From NCBI GenBank assembly GCA_964645535.1, contig CAZYCQ010000030.1:1-41192 (forward strand): a stretch of 41,192 bases of DNA, read 5' to 3'. Made by a program: the position numbers and the translations under genes. Each line of letters opens with the position of its first letter. Position 1 is the first letter of the stretch. Shown piece by piece: positions 7,258-33,994 of this stretch. Source of the DNA: an uncultured archaeon. Lineage in GTDB: Archaea > Asgardarchaeota > Heimdallarchaeia > Heimdallarchaeales > Kariarchaeaceae. Below the pieces are notes generated by a model. The model saw nothing but the letters and a program-made list of their open reading frames with translations. It did not search any database and had not been told where the DNA came from.

Positions 7258-9981
7258 TCATTTTGGCAATTGTCTGCTCTTTCCTCGTGCGTAATCAGAA
7301 ATGACGATGTTTCCAAGAATTTTCACGAAGTATTCGGAACCACTTGCTATGGCTACATAATCGTTATTCCCTTCATCAATGGTGCCAAGAAGAATCTCTT
7401 CCCCTTCCCGTTCACAACCGATGAAATCGGGAAGTGTACCTCCAAGCCCCCCTCTTTGAATTGCTCGCAAAGTCACGTTTGCGGGTGCATTATGCATTTT
7501 TTCAATCCAATCCTTGTGAGTGATTTCATCAATATATGAAACAATGGTGACTTGAACAGTACGTGGTAGTTGAAGGATTCTCTGTTCATTAACCATATCA
7601 ACAGAAGGAACCAAGATAGTTGCCTTGCTTTTGATGCGTCCCAACATGTCATTGATGTATTCAATTATTGCCTGTTTTCCCACAACCGTTGTGGTTTTGA
7701 TTTGGGGGGTTTCTGTTGTGTCAATCAGTTTTGAGAACCCCATCAGCGATTCATTGAGCCCTTGAAGGCTTGAAACCAACATATCGGAATTTGAAATAAA
7801 GTTTCCGACATATTGATCCAGAAGAGCCCTTGATCTTTCAAGATGGGCTGTGCTGACTCCTGTAGCAACGTCCTTGACTTTATCAACAGTGGCAAAGCCA
7901 TTTTCCTTGATCTGCTCGTTGTGTTCATTTAATTTTGAGATAAGTAGATCGGTCAATTGGGAGGTTCCGGTAGCCATTTCCTCTGCCAAAGTGGTCGAAA
8001 GAGCCTTGAGTCTTTGGGAAAATCCATCAAGATCTGATTTGAAAGCTTCAACCAAGTTCTTTTGAGCAAGTGTTTCAGTCTCCGTGATGCCTTCAAATTC
8101 ATTTTTTAGATTTTCCAGATGGGAAGAAAGGGATTCTGTAATTTGAATCACCTTGTCATTTAAACTTGAATTGGTCTCAGCAACCTTGGTAGAGATTTGA
8201 TTTTTCAACATCGAGAAACTTGAGTCTACATCTTCCAATGAATGTCCAATGTCCTGTTCAATGTCCGTCAATATCGAATTTAATTGGGCATCTATTTGGG
8301 TTCCTTGTTCGGTAAGCTGGTTTACAAATGCTTCCTTTTCGCCTTGCAATGATTCATGAAATGCTTGGAGAGTGGCATTGAGGTTTTGGAGGAATTGTTC
8401 AATTGATTGGTCTATTTGTATCCTGTTTTCGGCAAGAGAGTCTGTCGATTGTGAAATATGATTTTTTGTCGAACTCAGCAATTCAGATATCTTTTGCTGT
8501 AAACCAGTCACTTGAGCATTTATATTGCCGAACGCCTGTTCCATTTGTGCGGCCAGGTTGGTTTTGATGCCTTCAAGATTCTGGATCTGTTGTTGTTGCA
8601 GACTATCCAGTTCTTGGTTTTTTTGTGCATTCAATTGATTGATGGTCTCAATTGCCTGTGATTGGAGTTCTCCCTGTTTGTTTCTTGCAATATCAAGCTT
8701 TTGTTTCAGGGTTTCAGAGAGAGTTGTATTCAGAGTTTCAATGGTCTCCTGTGCCTGTTGGAGCAATCGGGCAAATTCCTGTTCCATTGACTGTTTAAGT
8801 TCCACCTCCTTTTGTTTGATGATTGAATTGAAATCATTTTCCAGAAGGGAGAAATGTTCCAGAACCGATTGGCTGGTATTCTCGACAAATGTTGTACCAG
8901 AGGAATGGATTGTAGACATTTGATCTTTTCCAGCCTGAATGGCGGTTGACAGAGCATTCTGCAATCCGATGGTTCCCTCATCCAATTTCTGCTGTAATGA
9001 CTCCTTAGATGATGAAAGCATATCTAGTCCCTGACCCAAAGATTCGGCAACCTCAGATGAACTTGTTTCTAGACCGGAGGATGCATCATCAAGGGTTTTT
9101 TTTGCTTGATCCAAGGATGTGTCTATCTTTTCCTTAATTCCCGCAGTCCTGTCCATGAATTCACCATGATGTTTTTGTGATAGTTGGATCAGCTTTTCAT
9201 AATTTTCCTCTGCCATTCCCTTCATATTGTCAATCTGGGATTTGTTGACATTTGATTGACGTCCAATCAGTCCCCGTTCGCTCTCTCTCAAGATTTCAAG
9301 TCTTTCCTTGATTGAGTTGGCGGTTGCTTCAACCGTTTCCAAATCCACTGAAATTTGGGGTGGAGTAATCTGAGTAGATTCAAGAAATGTCCGCAATGAT
9401 TCGGAGATTTTTGTGTCCAATGTGGTTTTTGCTGAGTCCAGCCTATTGGTAAAGTGTTGGATCAATTCTGTAGCTCGTCTATCAAGATCAGTCTTGTTTT
9501 GTCCAATCTCATCCAGATATTGGTCTTTATTGGAATTCAGTGCCTGCATTGCGGTTTGTGCATTTTCATTGATTCCTTTGGCAGTTTCATCGGATTTTAC
9601 GGAGATTTCATGACGGACGGTTTCAAGGGTTCCCTCCAAACCGCTGAGTAGTTTTTCGGACTCTTTTTTTATTTCATCAAGGGTTCTCTCTTTTTCTTCT
9701 TGGAATTCTCTCCCCAATGTGGAGATTGTCCCCAATGAACCCTGCACTTTTTCAATTGCCGTATCGACCGGCAATAGAGCAGCAAAACGATCCTGCAAGC
9801 CCGGAACGCGTCGTACAAGCTTTTTTGTTTCAAGTGTTTGAAGGGCATCATTGACAGCAGAGCTCCCAAAGCCTGTAATCGATCGAATTTCACCACCCGA
9901 AAGCTGACCACTGACCAATAGAACCCTGTAAATTTCTGCTTCTTCATGGGAAAGTCCCAAGGAACTTAAAACGTCACTCAT
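7258..9981 (-). CDS. TrmB-family wHTH protein with ~680-aa helical/coiled-coil insert and C-terminal TrmB effector-like domain
   Basis: N-terminus LSSLGLSHEEAEIYRVLL..G.LS..EI...L..L..K.LV is a TrmB wHTH. Long Q/E/L/S-rich, nearly proline-free helical middle. C-terminus VVGKQAIIEYINDMLGRIKSKATILVP resembles the TrmB sensor domain. Confidence 0.75.
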   Translation of the reverse strand: MSDVLSSLGLSHEEAEIYRVLLVSGQLSGGEIRSITGFGSSAVNDALQTLETKKLVRRVPGLQDRFAALLPVDTAIEKVQGSLGTISTLGREFQEEKERTLDEIKKESEKLLSGLEGTLETVRHEISVKSDETAKGINENAQTAMQALNSNKDQYLDEIGQNKTDLDRRATELIQHFTNRLDSAKTTLDTKISESLRTFLESTQITPPQISVDLETVEATANSIKERLEILRESERGLIGRQSNVNKSQIDNMKGMAEENYEKLIQLSQKHHGEFMDRTAGIKEKIDTSLDQAKKTLDDASSGLETSSSEVAESLGQGLDMLSSSKESLQQKLDEGTIGLQNALSTAIQAGKDQMSTIHSSGTTFVENTSQSVLEHFSLLENDFNSIIKQKEVELKQSMEQEFARLLQQAQETIETLNTTLSETLKQKLDIARNKQGELQSQAIETINQLNAQKNQELDSLQQQQIQNLEGIKTNLAAQMEQAFGNINAQVTGLQQKISELLSSTKNHISQSTDSLAENRIQIDQSIEQFLQNLNATLQAFHESLQGEKEAFVNQLTEQGTQIDAQLNSILTDIEQDIGHSLEDVDSSFSMLKNQISTKVAETNSSLNDKVIQITESLSSHLENLKNEFEGITETETLAQKNLVEAFKSDLDGFSQRLKALSTTLAEEMATGTSQLTDLLISKLNEHNEQIKENGFATVDKVKDVATGVSTAHLERSRALLDQYVGNFISNSDMLVSSLQGLNESLMGFSKLIDTTETPQIKTTTVVGKQAIIEYINDMLGRIKSKATILVPSVDMVNEQRILQLPRTVQVTIVSYIDEITHKDWIEKMHNAPANVTLRAIQRGGLGGTLPDFIGCEREGEEILLGTIDEGNNDYVAIASGSEYFVKILGNIVISDYARGKSRQLPK

Positions 9982-10199: not shown

Positions 10200-10934
10200 G
10201 TGAGCACTACAGTCTCAAGAGAAGAAATGAAGAAAGAAGCTGTTGTAGAAGCCCGGAAGCTATTGAAATCAACCAATTACGGCGTAATGTCCACTATCAG
10301 TGTCCAAGTCTCGGGATATCCTTTTGGATCCCATATGCCATTTTGCATGGACGATGATGGAAGCCTTTTGGTGTATATCAGTACCTTGGCACAACACACC
10401 AAAAACCTTGATGCCAATCCAAAATGTTCCCTCACCATCATCAGCCCAAATTATACACATATTCAGAATTCACAGAGGTTGACATATATTGGAGAGGGAT
10501 TCAAGGTTCTTGAAGAGGAGTTTGAAAAGGCGTATGAGACATATGTCAGGTTTTTCCCGAAGGCTGCAAGGTATAAGGAAATGCATGACTTTCATATTTA
10601 CAGGATCAATCCAGTGAGAATCCGTTATATCGGTGGTTTCGGTAAAATTTTCTGGATAGAAGTTGATGAACTTTTTGAACCTTCAATTTTCACGGGAAAC
10701 ACCAAAAAGTCCATTCTAGAACACATGAATGAGGATCACAAGGAATTTATGCAACGATACTTCAGCAAATTTGGTCTACCGGTTCCTGATATGGAAAAAA
10801 TCCGGATGGTCGATATAGATAAGTACGGAGTGATGATCATGGAGAATGATAAGCCCTTCTTTTTTGAATTTGAGGAACCATTGACGGATGAAGGACAGGC
10901 CAAAGATGCGATAATAAAATTGGGAAAATCCTAA
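10200..10934 (+). CDS. HugZ/HutZ-like heme-utilisation protein (PNPOx-like split barrel plus DUF2470-like C-terminus)
   Basis: GVMSTIS..GYPFGS, YISTLAQHTKNL..NPKCSL, MHDF.IY, RYIGGFGKIFW and ILEHMNEDH motifs. Start is GTG 10200 or ATG 10227. Confidence 0.85.
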   Translation: MSTTVSREEMKKEAVVEARKLLKSTNYGVMSTISVQVSGYPFGSHMPFCMDDDGSLLVYISTLAQHTKNLDANPKCSLTIISPNYTHIQNSQRLTYIGEGFKVLEEEFEKAYETYVRFFPKAARYKEMHDFHIYRINPVRIRYIGGFGKIFWIEVDELFEPSIFTGNTKKSILEHMNEDHKEFMQRYFSKFGLPVPDMEKIRMVDIDKYGVMIMENDKPFFFEFEEPLTDEGQAKDAIIKLGKS

Positions 10935-12297: not shown

Positions 12298-12732
12298 ATG
12301 GCAGAAATAACCATAAGGGAACTTAGCCTTGATGATGTACCCAGAATGGTGGAAATTTACAAGGGACTTACAGGGGATGAGATTGATGAGGACACCATGA
12401 GTGAGAAAATAGAGTATGGTCAGTGCTTGACAGCTTTAGGCGCCGAAGCGGATGGAATGCTTGTCGGGTTCATTATCGGAGAAACCAACCAAGGAACATT
12501 TGGAGAGGATGAGACAGTTGGTTGGATAAACATGGTTGGATTGGATAAGAAATACCGGAAGATGGGGATTGGAACCAAATTGGGAAAGGAACTTTTGGCA
12601 AGGTTTCAAGGATTGGGAATTAAGAAAATAAGAACAATTGTTGAGGATCGCGATTATGGTCTTCTGAATTATTTTCGATCCCTTGGTCTGGAAAAGGTAC
12701 CTTGGACTGTTTTGGAACTGAATTTCACATAA
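12298..12732 (+). CDS. GNAT-family N-acetyltransferase
   Basis: LVGFI, GWINMVGLDKKYRKMGIGTKL (acetyl-CoA motif A) and LNYFRSLG. Confidence 0.9.
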   Translation: MAEITIRELSLDDVPRMVEIYKGLTGDEIDEDTMSEKIEYGQCLTALGAEADGMLVGFIIGETNQGTFGEDETVGWINMVGLDKKYRKMGIGTKLGKELLARFQGLGIKKIRTIVEDRDYGLLNYFRSLGLEKVPWTVLELNFT

Positions 12733-13483
12733 TATGCCTGTCCTTATCGATGGGGGGTGCAACAAGACCTAGATTATTGCACAGTTGAACTACTTCCTGA
12801 TAATACCTTTGCCGCATTTCTTCGTTTTCCCATCTTTTGATCCCCAATTCGACAGCCAACTGTGCATTCTTGGAATCCTTATGTCCAAACATATCCAAGG
12901 CGCGTGGTATCCAAAAGTCAACGGCAGCTTGGGCAGTTTCCTTGTTTCCAGGATAGTTGGGATCAGTAATCACTTTTTTGAGTCCGTTGTAGCCAAAACC
13001 AATATGAAGCTTTTCCTCATTCAACATGAGCGGCATTTCCCGAGCCAATGGGGCATAGGAACATTCCTGAAATGCTTCAAGTTGGTACAGCCCAACCCTG
13101 TCAACGAAACAGGTAAAGGCACATACGCTTTCCCAGTTTTCGAATTCGATGTTAAAGCTTTCTAGGGTATGTTCTCCGATCTTTCTGGCAAGAAGTTTAT
13201 CGACAAGTGCTTCTCCTTCCGGACCGAATTGCTTTAGAAGCCTAGTCATTGTCAGTCCATGCCTGACCTCATCTGCCACGATACGTGAAAGAACCCACTT
13301 ATCTTCTGCGGTAGGAGCGTTTTCCTGCCATTCCAGATGTTGCTGAACGCTTGCAAATTCGGTATCTGCCTGTACAAAGAGCATCTTTTTCAGCAATGTG
13401 GCATATTCCTCTGGAAGCTCGTCAGGCGTTTCGAATTTTCGAATTTTTGCATATTTTCCTTTTTTGATGTGCCGTGTTGACAT
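12725..13483 (-). CDS. Ferritin-like diiron aryl-CoA epoxidase catalytic subunit (short BoxB/PaaA-like)
   Basis: QADTEFASVQQ, DEVRH, SFN..FENW, FVDRVGLYQL, YAPLAR and EEKLHIGFG align with BoxB motifs (QGDTEPASVEQ, EEGRH, FTDRDGKFQL, EEAHH). All six putative iron ligands are present. Confidence 0.85.
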   Translation of the reverse strand: MSTRHIKKGKYAKIRKFETPDELPEEYATLLKKMLFVQADTEFASVQQHLEWQENAPTAEDKWVLSRIVADEVRHGLTMTRLLKQFGPEGEALVDKLLARKIGEHTLESFNIEFENWESVCAFTCFVDRVGLYQLEAFQECSYAPLAREMPLMLNEEKLHIGFGYNGLKKVITDPNYPGNKETAQAAVDFWIPRALDMFGHKDSKNAQLAVELGIKRWENEEMRQRYYQEVVQLCNNLGLVAPPIDKDRHIM

Positions 13484-13547
13484 GAAAATCCTTCCTTAAA
13501 TTTCAGTTTACATTTCCATTAATATAGATTACCCCTGAAAAAAATTG

Positions 13548-14318
13548 TCAGGGAAACTCGGGCTTTCGTTTTTCCAAAAATGCGGATACACCCTCCTTAT
13601 GCTCATCCGTGGTGAATGCAACTCCTTGGTATGCCGATTCAAGCCGAAGTTGTTCTTCTAGATGGTTATCCATTGCAGCATTCAACAACTGCTTGGACAA
13701 TCCAATTGTAGCTCTTGGACCGTTTGCCCATTCAGTCAAAATTTCCTTTGAGAAAGAAGCGAGGGCTTCATGAGGAACTACGTCAAGAACCAGGCCAAAT
13801 TCCTTGGCTTGGCTTGCGGAAATGGTTTTTCTTCCAAACACCAAGTACTTGGCTCGTTGAAGACCCATGTATCTGACCAGATGATAGGAAGCTTCAGAGA
13901 TAAGCCCTACATTTCCATAAGCAAATCCGAATTTGGAATTTTCCGAGGCAATGATGAGATCACAGGCGGTAGCAAGAACAATACCCGCTCCAAAGCAGCT
14001 GCCATTTACCACGGCCAAACTGGGTTTTTTCATTCCCTGAATTTTGACCACTATCGAATGCAGAAGTTTTTCCAAACGTTCCTTGGTGATATACGCCTTA
14101 CCCAGCCTCGAGATCATGGTTTGGATATCTCCACCTGCACAGAAGGCCTTCCCCTCTCCAGTAAGAACCAGCGCTCGGATTTCTTCATTAATTGAAATTT
14201 CATCCAGTTGATGATTGAGTTCCTCGAGGAGTTCTGTATTGAGGGCATTTCTTTTATCAGGTCGGTTAAGGGTCAAGGTACAGATTCCGTTCTCGACAGT
14301 CTTTTTCAGGTAATCCAT
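13548..14318 (-). CDS. Crotonase-family protein, PaaG-like epoxy-CoA isomerase candidate
   Basis: LTLNRPDKRNAL, GKAFCAGGD, VNGSCFGAG and EHKEGVSAFLEKRKP. Lacks both hydratase glutamates (GAGIVLA; FAYGNVG) and has an acidic residue at the PaaG Asp position (GLISEA). Confidence 0.75.
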   Translation of the reverse strand: MDYLKKTVENGICTLTLNRPDKRNALNTELLEELNHQLDEISINEEIRALVLTGEGKAFCAGGDIQTMISRLGKAYITKERLEKLLHSIVVKIQGMKKPSLAVVNGSCFGAGIVLATACDLIIASENSKFGFAYGNVGLISEASYHLVRYMGLQRAKYLVFGRKTISASQAKEFGLVLDVVPHEALASFSKEILTEWANGPRATIGLSKQLLNAAMDNHLEEQLRLESAYQGVAFTTDEHKEGVSAFLEKRKPEFP

Positions 14319-14364
14319 GAACGTCTGTAAGGACTATGCTACATGTAGGTTTCGTTTTCCGTAG

Positions 14365-15072
14365 CTAGATCTTCAAACCGATTTTCTCAAGGATTTGCGA
14401 AACATTTTCCTGATAGTAGGTTTCAAATTGCTGGCGATCCCATTTTGGTATTCCCAATTCCTCAGGTGCGTCCAATTCGGATTCCGGCAGTCCATATCCA
14501 AATATCATTTTTGCCTTTTCAATCCATTCACGGATTCGTTTTTCCACGTTGGCCTGTTGTTCCGGGTTTGTGTCCAAAGCCCTTCGTAGTCCATTGATTC
14601 CAAATGCAGGATGTAAAGATTCCTCGTTTATGATCAAGGGCATTGCCCTTCTCAAAGGAGCATATTTTGCTTTCTGGAGCATTTTCAATTGATATACATC
14701 AACCAATGGGACAAAGCAGGAGAAGGCGCAAACATCGACCCAATCTTCAAATGGTTTGTTGAAAATTTCGAATTCGTGTTCACCAAGCTTCCTTTTGAAA
14801 AGTTCATCGGCGATTCCTTCACCTTCCTCACCAAAGTCTCTGAGAAAACGAGTGACTTGTAGGCCATGCCGGATCTCCGCGGAGACAATCCTTGCCATTC
14901 TCCATCTCGCCTCTGAACTTTCTGCCTTACTCTGCCAAACCAAATGAAGGTTATACATACCATACTCAATATCCCCCTGCTTTGAGAGGATTTTCAGCAA
15001 GAATTGCCTGCTTGGATCTGGCAGATTCTTTGCAGATATGAAAACATTTTCCTCAATCTGCGTGTCTTCCAT
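14365..15072 (-). CDS. Paralogous ferritin-like BoxB/Paa-type subunit with altered metal site
   Basis: Ungapped alignment with 12725..13483 (74/148 identities by hand count). QGDIE, AEIRH and EESLH are kept, but FVDRVG becomes FVPLVD. Confidence 0.8.
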   Translation of the reverse strand: MEDTQIEENVFISAKNLPDPSRQFLLKILSKQGDIEYGMYNLHLVWQSKAESSEARWRMARIVSAEIRHGLQVTRFLRDFGEEGEGIADELFKRKLGEHEFEIFNKPFEDWVDVCAFSCFVPLVDVYQLKMLQKAKYAPLRRAMPLIINEESLHPAFGINGLRRALDTNPEQQANVEKRIREWIEKAKMIFGYGLPESELDAPEELGIPKWDRQQFETYYQENVSQILEKIGLKI

Positions 15073-15236
15073 ATTGAAGGATTATCCATCACCTTAAAAT
15101 CTGTTCTGTCTTCCAATTCCAAAATAGCTTTGTGCTGAAGCCGACTATAGTAAATTCTTCCCAAATTGGTCTAGACGGATACCCTGAATCCCAAAAAGAT
15201 AAAAACAAGAGGAAAATTCAGGATTAGGCGATCATA

Positions 15237-16079
15237 ATGTCACAAACACCCAAGACACCAGGAGCAACATATATTGAAAGCGACAACCTTAGCCTCGTGG
15301 AATTCCGTAAAGAAGGCAAGGTTGGGTATATTGAACTGACAAACGAAAGAAAAATGAATACGTACAGCCATGAATTCTTTGTGCAGATGGATCGAGCCAT
15401 AATGACCGCAAGATTCGATCCGGATGTTTCAGTCATTGTCATCAAGAACCGGGTTCCCGGTGCTTTTTCGGCAGGGGCAGAAATTTCTTATCTGCAAGCC
15501 TGTAGCACTGACAGCAAAGGCAATTTTTGTCTGCACGGAAATGAAACACTGCTCAAGCTGGAACAAACACCAAAGGTCGTGATTGCGGCAATGAACGGCC
15601 ATACCGTAGGAGGAGGTCTGGAAATTGCCTTGGCGGCAGATATCAGGATTGCAGCTCGTTCTCCCAATCCAGAAAAGGAATACAAGATCGGTTTACCAGA
15701 GGTCAACCTTGGAGTCTTGCCAGGAACGGGAGGGACACAGAGGCTTTGCAGGCTCATTGGAAATTCAAGAGCAATTGATATGATGATAACTGGGAGACTG
15801 GTTACTCCTGATGAGGCATTGGAGTTAGGGCTTGTCAATTATGTGTTTGATGGGAATGAATTTGATGAGAAACTTTCAGAATATCTTTCCTTGCTAACTT
15901 CAAAGCCAGGAATGGCAATCGGATTGATCAAGAGAGCCGTTGTTTCAGGATCGCAAATGAGTCTCCACGAAGGCCTCACTCTTGAGAGAGAACTTCAGAA
16001 CCGGCTGTTTGCTTCGGAAGATGCACAAGAAGGAATAAACGCCTATCTTGAGAAACGAAAGCCAAATTGGAAAACATGA
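15237..16079 (+). CDS. Enoyl-CoA hydratase/crotonase, possibly BoxC-like ring-opening hydrolase
   Basis: AFSAGAEI, FCLHGNETL.KLEQTPK, NGHTVGGGLEIALAAD and IGLPEVNLGVLPGTGGTQRL; both catalytic Glu are present. Divergent from the epoxidase genes. Confidence 0.8.
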   Translation: MSQTPKTPGATYIESDNLSLVEFRKEGKVGYIELTNERKMNTYSHEFFVQMDRAIMTARFDPDVSVIVIKNRVPGAFSAGAEISYLQACSTDSKGNFCLHGNETLLKLEQTPKVVIAAMNGHTVGGGLEIALAADIRIAARSPNPEKEYKIGLPEVNLGVLPGTGGTQRLCRLIGNSRAIDMMITGRLVTPDEALELGLVNYVFDGNEFDEKLSEYLSLLTSKPGMAIGLIKRAVVSGSQMSLHEGLTLERELQNRLFASEDAQEGINAYLEKRKPNWKT

Positions 16080-30253: not shown

Positions 30254-31393
30254 TCATTCCTGCCATGATTTCCAATAATCTTCGATCAACGCCTCGCCCA
30301 GTTCTTTCGAAATGTTCAGAGGTCTTCGTGCATCAATCATAACGGCGTATTCATCTGTCATGGGCTTGTCCTGCTTGAAGGCCCTTTTTAGCGCCTTGGG
30401 ATGGGGGCCATGGGTAAATCCTCCTGGATGGAAGCTGATATAACCTTCTCCGACATTATCCCTACTCATGAAATCCCCTTGGTGGTAAAAGATAACCTCA
30501 TCATATTCGACATTGGAATGGAAAAACGGAATTTTCAAGGCATCTTCAGAGGATTCATATGGACGAGGAACAAAGCTGCACACCACAAAACCTTGACTGA
30601 TCCAAGTTGTATGGACACTGGGGGGAAGATGGTAGCGGTGTGAGTTGACTGGTCGGAAGTTCTTGATTGATAGTTTGAAAGGAGTTACATCCCCTTTCCA
30701 TCCAATGACATCGATGGGATTGTGAGGATGGGTGAAATGAGTATATTGACCTTGGCGTTTGTATCTGACCACCCATTCCCTGTCATCATCAATAGGTTGG
30801 GGTTCGGGTGTTTCGAGTATGGCTGGATCGAAAAGGGCAGTTGGGCCCAACATTCCCCGATCCGGAATCTGTACCTCTTCAGTACTTTCAATCAGCAGAA
30901 AATGGTTATCTCTTGTTTCAGGCACAAGCCGGTAAATTGTTCCCCTAGGGATGACGATATAATCGCCCCGTTCAAAATTGAGCGGACCGTAAATGGTCTC
31001 CATTACGCCCTTACCTTGATGAACAAACCAGATGTCATCTGAATCTGTTGATTTGTAATAGAATGGCATTGGTTCAGACCGCATGGAGATACGGATCTTC
31101 AAGTCGGCATTTTCCATTATGGTCAACGGGCTGCCCCATGGATCTGTTTTGTCGGTAGGAGTTGCCTTATTGGAATCGATCATGTATGGCTTGAAAGGTC
31201 CGTCAATTTTGGTAAAGTCTGTTGGAGGGTTTTTATGATATAGATGGGAAACCTTGCCGAAAAACCCTTGACGACCATGTTCATGTTCATATGTGGGAAT
31301 TCCGTCAATTTCCTTAAATCCAGCATGAGCCTGCTTGACAGTTTTCCCTTTAACCAGTGGAAAGACAGGCAAATAGCGATTTCGGTCTACCAT
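30254..31393 (-). CDS. hmgA: Homogentisate 1,2-dioxygenase
   Basis: GDYIVIPRG, DVIGW.G, HLPPSVHTT, CSFVPR, PFFHSN.EYDEV.FYH.G and HPGG..HGPHP (Fe ligands H, E, H); near hppD. Confidence 0.93.
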   Translation of the reverse strand: MVDRNRYLPVFPLVKGKTVKQAHAGFKEIDGIPTYEHEHGRQGFFGKVSHLYHKNPPTDFTKIDGPFKPYMIDSNKATPTDKTDPWGSPLTIMENADLKIRISMRSEPMPFYYKSTDSDDIWFVHQGKGVMETIYGPLNFERGDYIVIPRGTIYRLVPETRDNHFLLIESTEEVQIPDRGMLGPTALFDPAILETPEPQPIDDDREWVVRYKRQGQYTHFTHPHNPIDVIGWKGDVTPFKLSIKNFRPVNSHRYHLPPSVHTTWISQGFVVCSFVPRPYESSEDALKIPFFHSNVEYDEVIFYHQGDFMSRDNVGEGYISFHPGGFTHGPHPKALKRAFKQDKPMTDEYAVMIDARRPLNISKELGEALIEDYWKSWQE

Positions 31394-31447
31394 ACTGTAC
31401 TGAAGTCTGCTATAGTAATAAGTATTTTCAGGAGCAAATGAAAAGTT

Positions 31448-32785
31448 CTAACTTCTCTTGCGACGAATGATCGGGATTGCTGCTAAAACAGCCATCATTC
31501 CAAGTAGGGGCAATGATCCGTTGTCCTTGGTGCTTTCCTCAGTTGCTTCAGTCACGGTCAGGACTGCCGTATCTGTAGCAGAGTTTCCTTTGGCATCAGT
31601 TACCGTGATGGAGAACTCATAGGTTCCCACCTCCAATGAACTGAAATCGGGAGAGATCTTTTGACCAAACTGCCATTCTCCAGAGAGAACCTTTGTTCCA
31701 TTCTGAGACAGTTCAAAAGTGCCTCCGAAAAGATAGCCTCCGACAATCCATCCGAAACCAGAACTTTCCAGTTTATTGATTGGAACAGTTAAATCATCCT
31801 GTGGAGTCAGTTGGACATCACCATCATAGTCGAACACTTGGATTCTATAATTTCCTTGATCTGCAACAGCCACCCTTTTGTTTGTCGCGTCAAATGCGAT
31901 GCCGTCAGGAGAGATGAAACGTCCTTGTTCAGTTCCGGCGAAACCGCCAAATGACGCAATTGGCTTATAGGTATCCCTATCGAAAATGATGACACGGGAA
32001 TACTGTGAAGAGGAGGCACTATCAGGGCCTTCATCGACTGCAAGGATATTGCCATCACTATCCAATGCCAATCCTTCATAATTCATCGTGGCATACTCTT
32101 TTCCGAATACCGTGATCTGGGTTTGATTGCTCAATCCATATACCGCGATCTGTCTTTGACCTTCAAGAGACACATAAAGAAGATCCCGGTCAGCATCGAC
32201 CACCATATTTTCAGGGGTTGAGAATTGGGGAAGAGCAATTTCGCCTTGATAGACCCCATTTGAGTTGAAAATCAAAACCTTATTGTTTGGTTGGTCAGTT
32301 ATGTAAATATCACCGGTATCTGGATTAACCGCCAAACCTTGGGTATCTCTTTCCTTTTCATCGCCAGAAATGGCAGGCATGGAGACCACAGTGTTTGGAG
32401 AAGTTCCATCATGGTCAAAGAAGTAGAGGTTTCCCGCTTTTTCCACCACTACAATCGTTCCATTCGGCAATTCACCAATTCCCTGCACTTCATTGTTGAC
32501 AGCAGTTTCTATTGGAGTAAACCCTGTCATTTCCCGCAGGAAATTGCCATCTTTGTCAAAGACTTGGACTCGGAGGTTCACGGTATCGCCTGCATAGATA
32601 TTTCCCGTAGAATCTATGTAAACACTGTCAGGTTCATCAAATTGACCCTGAGCCGATCCCTGTTCCCCACCAATGACCAAGATCGGTTCAAGGGATCCAG
32701 TAAGAAGATCATCCTGCGCCTTCACCGGGAATGACGCAAAGAAGATGAGTAAAATGACTGCAAAAGCTTTTCTTCTCATTTTCAT
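31448..32785 (-). CDS. Secreted NHL-repeat beta-propeller with Ig domain and CTERM-like anchor
   Basis: Signal peptide; NHL repeats (GQFDEP..V.ID..GNIY.GD..N.RVQVFD; GRFISPDGIAFD..VAVADQGNYRIQVFD); Ig segment L.VGTYEF.ITVTD.KGN.ATD; ends SLPLLGMMAVLAAIPIIRRKRS. Confidence 0.85.
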   Translation of the reverse strand: MKMRRKAFAVILLIFFASFPVKAQDDLLTGSLEPILVIGGEQGSAQGQFDEPDSVYIDSTGNIYAGDTVNLRVQVFDKDGNFLREMTGFTPIETAVNNEVQGIGELPNGTIVVVEKAGNLYFFDHDGTSPNTVVSMPAISGDEKERDTQGLAVNPDTGDIYITDQPNNKVLIFNSNGVYQGEIALPQFSTPENMVVDADRDLLYVSLEGQRQIAVYGLSNQTQITVFGKEYATMNYEGLALDSDGNILAVDEGPDSASSSQYSRVIIFDRDTYKPIASFGGFAGTEQGRFISPDGIAFDATNKRVAVADQGNYRIQVFDYDGDVQLTPQDDLTVPINKLESSGFGWIVGGYLFGGTFELSQNGTKVLSGEWQFGQKISPDFSSLEVGTYEFSITVTDAKGNSATDTAVLTVTEATEESTKDNGSLPLLGMMAVLAAIPIIRRKRS

Positions 32786-32866
32786 GGTTATCTATCTATC
32801 TATTTCAAACAATGTTTTATACCTTTTTCAGAAGCCTTAGACTAAAGAGAGAAGCATAGATCACAC

Positions 32867-33994
32867 TTAGAGATTGCCACGTTCGGCTTGTTCCCTCTCA
32901 ATCGCTTCAAAAAGGGCTTGGAAATTGCCTTTCCCGAAACCTTCACTCCCCTTTCTCTGGATGATTTCGAAGAAGAAGGTAGGTCGATCTTGGATAGGGC
33001 GTGTAAACAACTGAAGAAGATACCCCTTGTCATCCCGATCGACAAGGATACCATGTTCTGCAAGCACTTCCACATCCTCTTCAATTTCACCGACACGGTC
33101 AATGAGATTATCATAGTATGTATGTGGCACTCGGATGAATTCAACTCCTCTTTCCCTCATGCTTTTTACTGTTGAGACAATGTCATCAGTACTAAGAGCA
33201 ATGTGTTGCACACCAGCGCCATGGTAGTAGTTGATGTACTCTTCGATTTGTGACATTTTAAGACCTTTGGCAGGTTCATTGATGGGCATTTTCACCTTGT
33301 TGTTGTAGTTTCTTACCACTTTTGATCGCAAAGCGGAGTATTGCGTTGCGATATCGTTTTCAGAAAATTCGATGAATGTGTCAAAACCAAAGACATTGTG
33401 ATAGAACTGGACAGTAGGATCCATTTGATGCCAATTGACATTGCCTACGATATGGTCAATCCTAGTGACACCACGTTCAGGAACCTCGACAGGAGGTTGG
33501 TATTCTTGATACCCTGGCAGGAAAAGCCCATCATATCCATCTCTTTCAATGAACCTGTGAACCACATCACCATAGGTCGATATTGTTGCAACCCTAACAG
33601 ATCCATAATCATCCTTCAGCTCTTTGGGAGGAGAAATGCCTTTTGCACCCCTTTCCAAGGCATTCTCCCAAGCGACCTCAACGTCCCTGACAGTCAAACC
33701 CACAACCTTGACACCATCCCCATGAGTCATATGGTGTGCAGCCATTTCACTTGCGGGAGAGTAAGGTGCAGAGAGCACGATTTTGGCATCACCCTGTTGC
33801 ATGACATAGGAGGCGAACTTCCGATTTCCAGTCTTCAGCGTTGACCAAGCAACAGGTTGGAAGCCAAAGGCATGTTGGTAATAATAGGCGGCCTGATAGG
33901 CGTTGCCTACCCAAAATTCAACCGAATCAAAGTCTTCGACTGTCAAAATGTCTGTGGCTTTCTTAACCCCGGTGTCCCTTTCCAAATCTAGCAT
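32867..33994 (-). CDS. hppD: 4-hydroxyphenylpyruvate dioxygenase
   Basis: IDHIVGN, YSALRSKV, PINEPA, SQIEEY, GVQHIAL, GYLLQLFT and FFEIIQRKG..GFGKGNF.ALFEAIEREQ..RGNL. Confidence 0.97.
   Translation of the reverse strand: MLDLERDTGVKKATDILTVEDFDSVEFWVGNAYQAAYYYQHAFGFQPVAWSTLKTGNRKFASYVMQQGDAKIVLSAPYSPASEMAAHHMTHGDGVKVVGLTVRDVEVAWENALERGAKGISPPKELKDDYGSVRVATISTYGDVVHRFIERDGYDGLFLPGYQEYQPPVEVPERGVTRIDHIVGNVNWHQMDPTVQFYHNVFGFDTFIEFSENDIATQYSALRSKVVRNYNNKVKMPINEPAKGLKMSQIEEYINYYHGAGVQHIALSTDDIVSTVKSMRERGVEFIRVPHTYYDNLIDRVGEIEEDVEVLAEHGILVDRDDKGYLLQLFTRPIQDRPTFFFEIIQRKGSEGFGKGNFQALFEAIEREQAERGNL

Follow-up and report, generated by a model that had tools for sequence, protein, structure and literature searches.

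We analysed four clustered genes (positions 12725-16079) in a 41,192-nucleotide stretch of DNA from an uncultured archaeon (contig CAZYCQ010000030.1 of assembly GCA_964645535.1), hereafter the window, and estimate a probability of roughly 0.55 that they belong to a compact Box-type pathway for the aerobic dearomatisation of benzoyl-coenzyme A (benzoyl-CoA) or a ring-substituted benzoyl-CoA, rather than to a hybrid of the Box and Paa systems. All chemical steps of this pathway are ones that we infer. The conserved core of the system is a pair of genes, one encoding a short diiron protein (copy A) and the other a BoxC-like crotonase; the duplication that gave the second diiron protein of the cluster (copy C) is not part of that core. 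Two bacterial layouts are known for CoA-dependent aerobic ring cleavage; among archaea, Halobacteria were the only group with Paa pathways in a survey of 2026 (PMC13186573).

Copy A has the diiron ligands of BoxB and five of its seven benzoyl-pocket residues

Copy A, a predicted short BoxB-clade diiron aryl-CoA oxygenase of 252 amino acids (aa; 12725-13483, minus strand), contains the four motifs that an earlier note on this DNA had picked out as BoxB-type (QADTE.ASV.Q, DEVRH, F.DR.G.YQL and EEKLH). These motifs hold E42, E72, H75, D128, E157 and H160, which are all six class I diiron ligands of PaaA and BoxB, a ligand set described previously (PMC4498308; PMC5489048) and represented in BoxB by Glu120, Glu150, His153, Asp211, Glu240 and His243 (PMC5489048). 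The benzoyl pocket of BoxB is formed by Gln116, Thr119, Ser123, Phe193, Phe203, Phe206 and Thr210 (PMC5489048). Five of these seven positions are kept in copy A, with Q38, T41, S45, F110 and F123 corresponding to Gln116, Thr119, Ser123, Phe193 and Phe206, and with V120 in place of Phe203 and V127 in place of Thr210; Escherichia coli PaaA shares the pocket only at the Phe193 equivalent. The lysine bridge of PaaA, Glu49/Lys68 (PMC4498308), is absent from copy A, which has His49/Ile68, and the C-terminal Lys/Asn equivalents of PaaA 214/218 are retained.

Copy A matched the Pfam family PaaA_PaaC at 106 bits (cut-off 28.5) and scored below the equivalog cut-offs for PaaA (102 vs 280), BoxB (TIGR03225; 95 vs 499) and PaaC (31 vs 133). 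Its predicted structure (predicted local distance difference test, pLDDT, 92.6) gave a template-modelling (TM) score of 0.88 against BoxB by query length. A fold search returned 4MUD, PaaA and BoxB at E values of 3e-12 to 1e-7, and R2lox and ribonucleotide reductase R2 at E values above 8e-3, ruling out copy A as R2lox, R2 or a ferritin. The earlier note had called for a phylogeny with BoxB, PaaA and PaaC. In a mixture-model tree of 56 diiron sequences, with both full-length and 380-390-aa proteins on the BoxB side, copy A fell in a clade with BoxB (support 98/93), with PaaA and PaaC outside it (99/99), and forced grouping of copy A with Paa was rejected (approximately unbiased test, p-AU 0.021). 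Alignment and model together suggest that copy A is a catalytic subunit with a BoxB-like pocket.

The partner crotonase has a BoxC-type set of active-site residues

The second member of the core is a crotonase of 280 aa (15237-16079, plus strand), which matches the catalytic domain of BoxC and whose Cys98, Glu129 and Glu155 align with BoxC Cys111, Glu146 and Glu168. BoxC has two active-site glutamates (PMC4498308). The full Cys/Glu/Glu set is present in 69/69 rows of relatives, chosen at 45% identity or more and including near-duplicates, and in none of the other crotonases compared. The best solved match of the 280-aa crotonase is 2PPY (E 1e-74), which is also the top solved relative of BoxC besides BoxC itself. 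In the host genome (3.6 Mb, 89% complete) this crotonase is the best match to BoxC, over BoxC residues 51-272, and a full-length two-domain BoxC was not found there. The N-terminal domain of BoxC nests inside the clade of the 280-aa crotonase (97/94), on a long branch. Judged by its residues and its position in the tree, the crotonase is most likely a BoxC-like enzyme reduced to one domain, and we predict it to be an epoxide/oxepin ring hydrolase.

Of 61 related genomes, the 8 that carry copy A are also the ones that carry the 280-aa crotonase. The synteny survey proposed in the earlier note showed that a homologue of this crotonase adjoins the copy-A homologue in 35/36 Thermoplasmata loci and in 28/28 loci of the Gemmatimonadota/Acidobacteria group, counting only loci with enough flank. 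The epoxidase and BoxC-like crotonase core is not special to Asgard archaea; it is also found in Thermoplasmata, Sulfolobales, Chloroflexota, Gemmatimonadota and Acidobacteria.

Copy C is a degenerate paralogue of copy A

Copy C (235 aa; 14365-15072, minus strand) is 42% identical to copy A and matched PaaA_PaaC at 59 bits but, like copy A, no curated equivalog above cut-off, so the paralogy claimed in the earlier note stands; what that note overlooked is that the Asp ligand has been replaced by Pro122. The other five ligands are retained (E36, E66, H69, E151 and H154), and an Asp (Asp125) lies three residues beyond Pro122. In each of five related lineages, Pro, Ala, Thr or Ser occupies the Asp-ligand position and an Asp follows three residues further on. 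The pocket Thr/Ser are replaced in copy C by Ile35/Met39, and the CoA-binding Lys (equivalent to PaaA Lys214) by Pro209. In the diiron tree, copies A and C of Kariarchaeaceae form one clade (99/94); copy C as a true PaaC was rejected (p-AU 0.007), as was a common origin of all second copies, including those of Chloroflexota and Sulfolobales (p-AU 3e-5). The trees point to a single Kariarchaeaceae-level duplication on the BoxB side as the source of both copies. Copy C was not found in three of the eight carrier genomes (G005, G008, which is 94% complete, and G009), and four Thermoplasmata genomes have one diiron copy only; these single-copy genomes led us to reject the duplication as an essential feature.

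A structural model of the A/C complex scored 0.91, with a best control of 0.63, on a measure for which the benchmark mark was reached by 58/80 solved and 2/110 mismatched pairs. Model contacts agreed to at least 97%, and partner pLDDT was at least 89. Because PaaAC-like complexes have already been solved and the partner alignment contained copy-A rows, the model shows likeness only, and it does not separate a heterodimer from a homodimer. We consider copy C a probable non-catalytic partner subunit with a PaaC-like structural role.

A PaaG-type crotonase lies between the two diiron genes

Of the two hydratase glutamates, the 256-aa crotonase (13548-14318, minus strand) has neither, and where E. 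coli PaaG has Asp144 it carries a single catalytic acid, Glu142. The analysis supports the earlier proposal that the cluster encodes one isomerase-type and one hydrolase-type crotonase. Both crotonases matched the ECH_1 profile above cut-off (E about 1e-56). The 256-aa protein is the best PaaG match in the genome (37%), scored 183 bits against the TIGR02280 cut-off of 345, and grouped with PaaG at modest support (81/97). Among 21 genomes searched, it was present in 7/8 copy-A carriers and in no non-carrier. Dehydroadipyl-CoA is another substrate of PaaG, which moves its double bond (PMC4498308). Since isomerisation of dehydroadipyl-CoA is needed after BoxC and BoxD too, the 256-aa enzyme does not require phenylacetyl-CoA as the substrate of the pathway, and its residues fit a predicted downstream isomerase that acts on dehydroadipyl-CoA (delta3-delta2).

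The four open reading frames (ORFs) are real and intact, at the place given in the earlier note. On the minus strand the order is copy C, a 46-nucleotide (nt) gap, the 256-aa crotonase, a 64-nt gap and copy A; the 280-aa crotonase is divergent from copy C, with 164 nt between them. Rates of nonsynonymous substitution (dN) relative to two congeners were 0.06-0.11 for copy A and 0.21-0.28 for copy C, within a range of 0.06-0.31 for the cluster. With synonymous sites near saturation in the same comparisons, a dN of just 0.06-0.31 indicates that the four genes are conserved. The nearest named homologues of the cluster proteins are from Ca. Kariarchaeaceae, which agrees with the Asgard origin suggested previously; the host is a Heimdallarchaeia genome, probably of the Kariarchaeaceae.

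Related loci differ in the genes that surround the core

The Metallosphaera locus comprises a benzoate-CoA-ligase-family gene above cut-off, a crotonase, copy A, a second copy, a thiolase, a PaaK-like gene (below cut-off) and a dehydrogenase, and another relative, P0127, has a benzoate-CoA-ligase-family gene, also above cut-off, directly upstream. A Gemmatimonadota locus encodes a crotonase, an aldehyde dehydrogenase, a thiolase, a PaaG-like protein, a 380-aa BoxB-like protein, a 3-hydroxyacyl-CoA dehydrogenase and a PaaF-like protein. An acidobacterial operon (L105:6488-15049) encodes a BoxC-like crotonase, an aldehyde dehydrogenase, a 391-aa BoxB-like protein, a crotonase and a molybdenum enzyme of the xanthine-dehydrogenase type that may be a 4-hydroxybenzoyl-CoA reductase. 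In Chloroflexota, the operon consists of PaaX, a crotonase, copy A, a crotonase, a CoA-transferase-fold gene, a NuoE/NuoF-like pair and a second copy. Two examples (L115:8136-14934 and L166:8023-14890) have two different short diiron proteins, each with six ligands, and the NuoE/NuoF-like pair is a candidate reductase, of an undescribed type, for these proteins.

Other neighbours of the relatives' genes include an acyl-CoA dehydrogenase and a long-chain ligase type. A hotdog thioesterase is encoded near some of the Thermoplasmata loci, and no close PaaG-like partner was found beside the Thermoplasmata copy-A genes. One such gene (L074:9001-9755) matched the profile in a shorter frame (profile 55-207), suggesting a frameshift or an assembly error. 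P0126, which belongs to the clade of copy A and is 47% identical to it, has a thioesterase on one side and a 3-hydroxyanthranilate dioxygenase above cut-off on the other. At L164:82-4424, a short diiron protein, a candidate anthraniloyl-CoA 3-hydroxylase, is encoded between PaaX/thioesterase genes and 3-hydroxyanthranilate dioxygenase, amidohydrolase and RidA-type genes. In the 'paa' clusters of a Thermus plasmid and of Haloarcula (L123:5968-12663 and L124:4995-8429), PaaA has the Thr/Ser of a BoxB-like pocket, and the crotonase, which belongs to the wider BoxC-like clade, lacks the Cys; phenylacetate may not be the substrate of these clusters.

Candidate partners elsewhere in the genome

A canonical PaaA/PaaC system with its paaB and paaD genes elsewhere in the genome, which the earlier note had allowed for, is rejected: copies A and C are the only two PF05138 genes, and PaaB, PaaD, PaaK and PaaX were not found in the 89% complete host genome. 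PaaK gave no match at all in seven Asgard relatives, and its matches in 16 carrier genomes never passed the cut-off; 4 of the 16 have benzoate-ligase-family genes above cut-off. The only BoxA match in the host was a 51-residue ferredoxin-domain match, with none in the 16 carrier genomes, whose assemblies are incomplete. For PaaE, the host has only stand-alone FAD/NAD(P) reductases without the ferredoxin domain; two of them, on contigs C10 and C25, are electron-donor candidates only, and the C10 reductase is not specifically linked to copy A because genomes without copy A carry it too. Neither the MaoC-type hydrolase domain of PaaZ nor a NuoE/NuoF-like pair of the Chloroflexota type was found in the host genome.

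Two genes for heme-copper oxidase subunit I were found in the host, and this subunit is present in all seven copy-A-carrying relatives. Host contig C14 contains a class I benzoyl-CoA-reductase-like cluster (L127:2930-11550), and a BcrB-like gene was found in 4 of the 21 genomes searched, all four of which carry copy A. The genes of the C14 cluster resemble Had, BcrC, BcrB, BcrA, BcrD, Oah/BadI, a CoA-transferase fold and an SDR, all below their cut-offs; the CoA-transferase-fold gene is a possible activating enzyme. A candidate aldehyde dehydrogenase is encoded at C13:58419-59879, and its orthologue lies beside the cluster in relative G003.

Proposed pathway and alternative explanations

In the proposed Box-type pathway, reduced copy A would activate O2 and form an aroyl-CoA 2,3-epoxide, acting as a homodimer where it is the single copy and as an A/C heterodimer in the host genus, with electrons from an unlinked, non-BoxA donor. 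The 280-aa crotonase would then hydrolyse the epoxide/oxepin and release formate to give 3,4-dehydroadipyl-CoA semialdehyde, which an unlinked aldehyde dehydrogenase, perhaps that on C13, would oxidise. The 256-aa enzyme would shift the double bond (3,4 to 2,3) before general beta-oxidation completed the route. Breakdown of aromatic amino acids within the cell is the probable source of the aroyl-CoA, as a dedicated ligase was not found. Besides the two core proteins, we count in favour of this pathway the heme-copper oxidases and the benzoyl-CoA-reductase-like cluster of the host, together with the benzoate-ligase-family neighbours of the Metallosphaera orthologue and P0127.

Several observations weigh against the Box-type pathway. 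BoxA, a linked reductase and a benzoate-CoA ligase above cut-off were not found in the host or in seven relatives. V120 and V127 of copy A differ from BoxB and are closer to PaaA (I118/V125), and the pocket Thr/Ser alone do not fix the substrate because Thermus and haloarchaeal PaaA-like proteins carry them too. Placement of BoxC outside the crotonase clade was not rejected (p-AU 0.11; the tests on that tree gave p 0.11 and 0.08), and, within the wider clade, crotonases from Chloroflexota, Sulfolobales and Thermus do not have the Cys; the role of that residue in BoxC (Cys111) is one that Bains and colleagues reportedly described in 2009. The related genomes that share the pair are not independent samples. 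Lastly, the neighbours of P0126 indicate that the short diiron clade is not tied to one product and can serve hydroxylation.

The last of these points favours an alternative in which copy A is an aroyl-CoA hydroxylase, converting, for example, anthraniloyl- or 4-hydroxybenzoyl-CoA via an arene oxide to a phenol, with the crotonases acting elsewhere. A precedent exists in PhgABC, which takes 4-hydroxybenzoate to gentisate via the CoA ester (PMC7862547), and both the kynureninase gene of the host and the thioesterases near some Thermoplasmata loci would suit such a role. Nevertheless, we judge it improbable: there is no crotonase at the P0126 locus, whereas the BoxC-like crotonase tracks copy A in 8/8 genomes, and the host cluster has no thioesterase. 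A 3-hydroxyanthranilate dioxygenase was not found in the host either, in a search that gave no match in any control genome. Unlikely, though less so, is Paa-type chemistry with Box-clade parts, in which copy A would epoxidise phenylacetyl-CoA or another aryl-acetyl-CoA, the PaaG-like enzyme would form the oxepin-CoA and the 280-aa crotonase would replace the PaaZ hydrolase. An indolepyruvate-oxidoreductase-like alpha subunit in the host (599 bits, below the cut-off of 651) would supply aryl-acetyl-CoAs without a ligase; the affinity of the 256-aa protein for PaaG and its presence in seven of the eight copy-A genomes, the PaaA-like valines of copy A, the PaaX gene at the head of the Chloroflexota operon and the PaaK-like gene of Metallosphaera all fit. 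Against this stand the lack of a PaaK match above cut-off, the Thermoplasmata loci without a close PaaG-like neighbour, the BoxB-type Gln/Thr/Ser/Phe pocket, the BoxC-type Cys and the absent lysine bridge; moreover, the PaaG-type isomerisation is equally needed in the Box route.

We think it quite improbable that the substrate is non-benzenoid (a heteroaromatic or olefinic acyl-CoA), or that the pair mainly deoxygenates or detoxifies epoxides or binds metal. Such roles would accommodate the lack of a linked ligase or reductase, the acyl-CoA dehydrogenase and long-chain ligase type near relatives' genes, and the five metal ligands kept by all five of the divergent copy-C lineages, by which copy C may have a metal-dependent role of its own, but the fold search puts 4MUD, PaaA and BoxB far above R2lox and R2, and benzoate-ligase-family genes neighbour relatives' copies. 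A broader proposal, which we hold tentatively and regard as rather doubtful, joins several elements: the short epoxidase and single-domain hydrolase would be an ancestral, archaea-rich CoA-epoxide route and the source of BoxB and BoxC, with an undescribed donor and a substrate other than plain benzoyl-CoA; the PaaC-like partner would have been re-invented by duplication at least twice, and the Kariarchaeaceae partner would have an altered metal site with its Asp one helical turn away. If so, an Asgard lineage would have both an O2-dependent and an O2-independent way to dearomatise one aroyl-CoA and would switch between them.

Comparison with known systems

The closest known route to the proposed Box-type pathway is BoxABC(D) (BoxB of Aromatoleum/Azoarcus evansii, PDB 3PER/3PM5, TIGR03225; BoxC of Burkholderia, PDB 2W3P). 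Copy A resembles BoxB in its six iron ligands, five of seven second-shell residues and its side of the tree, and the 280-aa crotonase has Cys/Glu/Glu at the BoxC positions. By contrast, copy A is 252 aa long rather than about 475, with Val at the Phe203 and Thr210 positions, the crotonase has one domain where BoxC has 556 aa, no BoxA was found, and a paralogous partner is present where BoxB is monomeric (PMC4498308). PaaABC(D)E with PaaG/PaaZ (E. coli; PDB 3PVR, 4IIT; TIGR02156, TIGR02158) has the same fold and ligand set, and the likeness extends to a catalytic protein with a degenerate paralogue, the Lys/Asn of PaaA 214/218 and a PaaG-type crotonase. The differences are that copy A falls below the PaaA/PaaC cut-offs and has no lysine bridge, that PaaB, PaaD, PaaK and PaaX were not found, and that copy C keeps five ligands and is separated from PaaC in the tree. 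The cluster thus has neither the BoxABC nor the PaaABCDE layout, as the earlier note had recognised; it departs from BoxABC in size, BoxA and the two-domain BoxC, and from Paa in most features. Descent as a Box/Paa hybrid, which that note had also proposed, is not supported: it conflicts with the single duplication on the BoxB side, with a degenerate and non-universal copy C and with a crotonase that is probably BoxC-like. We read the cluster as a compact variant of the Box route, with a core common to other archaeal and bacterial groups, rather than as a third chemistry.

The closest solved structure for copies A and C is SSO1313, a ring-oxidation-related protein of Sulfolobus solfataricus (PDB 4MUD; E 4e-35 and 2e-20; TM 0.83). 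It keeps all six ligands and resembles the Sulfolobales second copy, which arose separately from copy C. The 280-aa crotonase shares an FC motif with 2PPY, a Geobacillus-type enoyl-CoA hydratase; no functional study of 4MUD or 2PPY was found in the searched literature. PhgABC, a 4-hydroxybenzoyl-CoA hydroxylase that works by an NIH shift (Zhao et al. 2018, as cited in PMC7862547), is likewise an aroyl-CoA oxygenation system without Paa accessory subunits. It leaves the ring intact and relies on a ligase and a thioesterase, whereas the constant partner in the system described here is a crotonase of ring-hydrolase type; neither a linked ligase nor a linked thioesterase was found in the window. 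PhgA itself is presumably a short PaaA-like diiron protein. No paper on the compact two-gene layout was found in the searched literature, which left most subscription journals outside it. The findings added here are that the partner crotonase has a BoxC-type triad, that the degenerate copy arose independently, and how the system is distributed among Asgard archaea.

If the Box-type pathway is correct, it would be an overlooked aromatic-degradation route, encoded by genes for proteins of about 250 and 270 aa that are now misannotated as phenylacetate catabolism and carried by Kariarchaeaceae, peat/soil Thermoplasmata, Sulfolobales and several bacterial phyla. Two orphan structures, 4MUD and 2PPY, would gain functions, mechanistic studies would have in the copy-A type the smallest aryl-CoA epoxidase, and there would be further evidence of oxygen use in Heimdallarchaeia. 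The cultured carriers Metallosphaera and Acidianus make the route directly testable.

Other genes in the window

A GNAT acetyltransferase gene (144 aa; 12298-12732, plus strand) is convergent with copy A and overlaps it by 8 nt. Its membership in the cluster is uncertain; among related loci, only four, all of them Asgard, have it next to copy A, in varying orientation. The Haloarcula 'paa' cluster is likewise bordered by a GNAT gene. At lower coordinates in the window, 7258-9981 encodes a protein of 907 aa that combines a TrmB helix-turn-helix at its N terminus with a long coiled coil of apolipoprotein-like type, and 10200-10934 encodes a HugZ-like heme-utilisation protein. A homologue of the latter, apparently split between two ORFs, is encoded close to the cluster of G003 (L026:15934-16691). 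At 30254-33994, a 4-hydroxyphenylpyruvate dioxygenase gene above cut-off and a divergent homogentisate-dioxygenase-like gene are followed by a CMD/AhpD-like gene, suggesting further O2-dependent aromatic catabolism.

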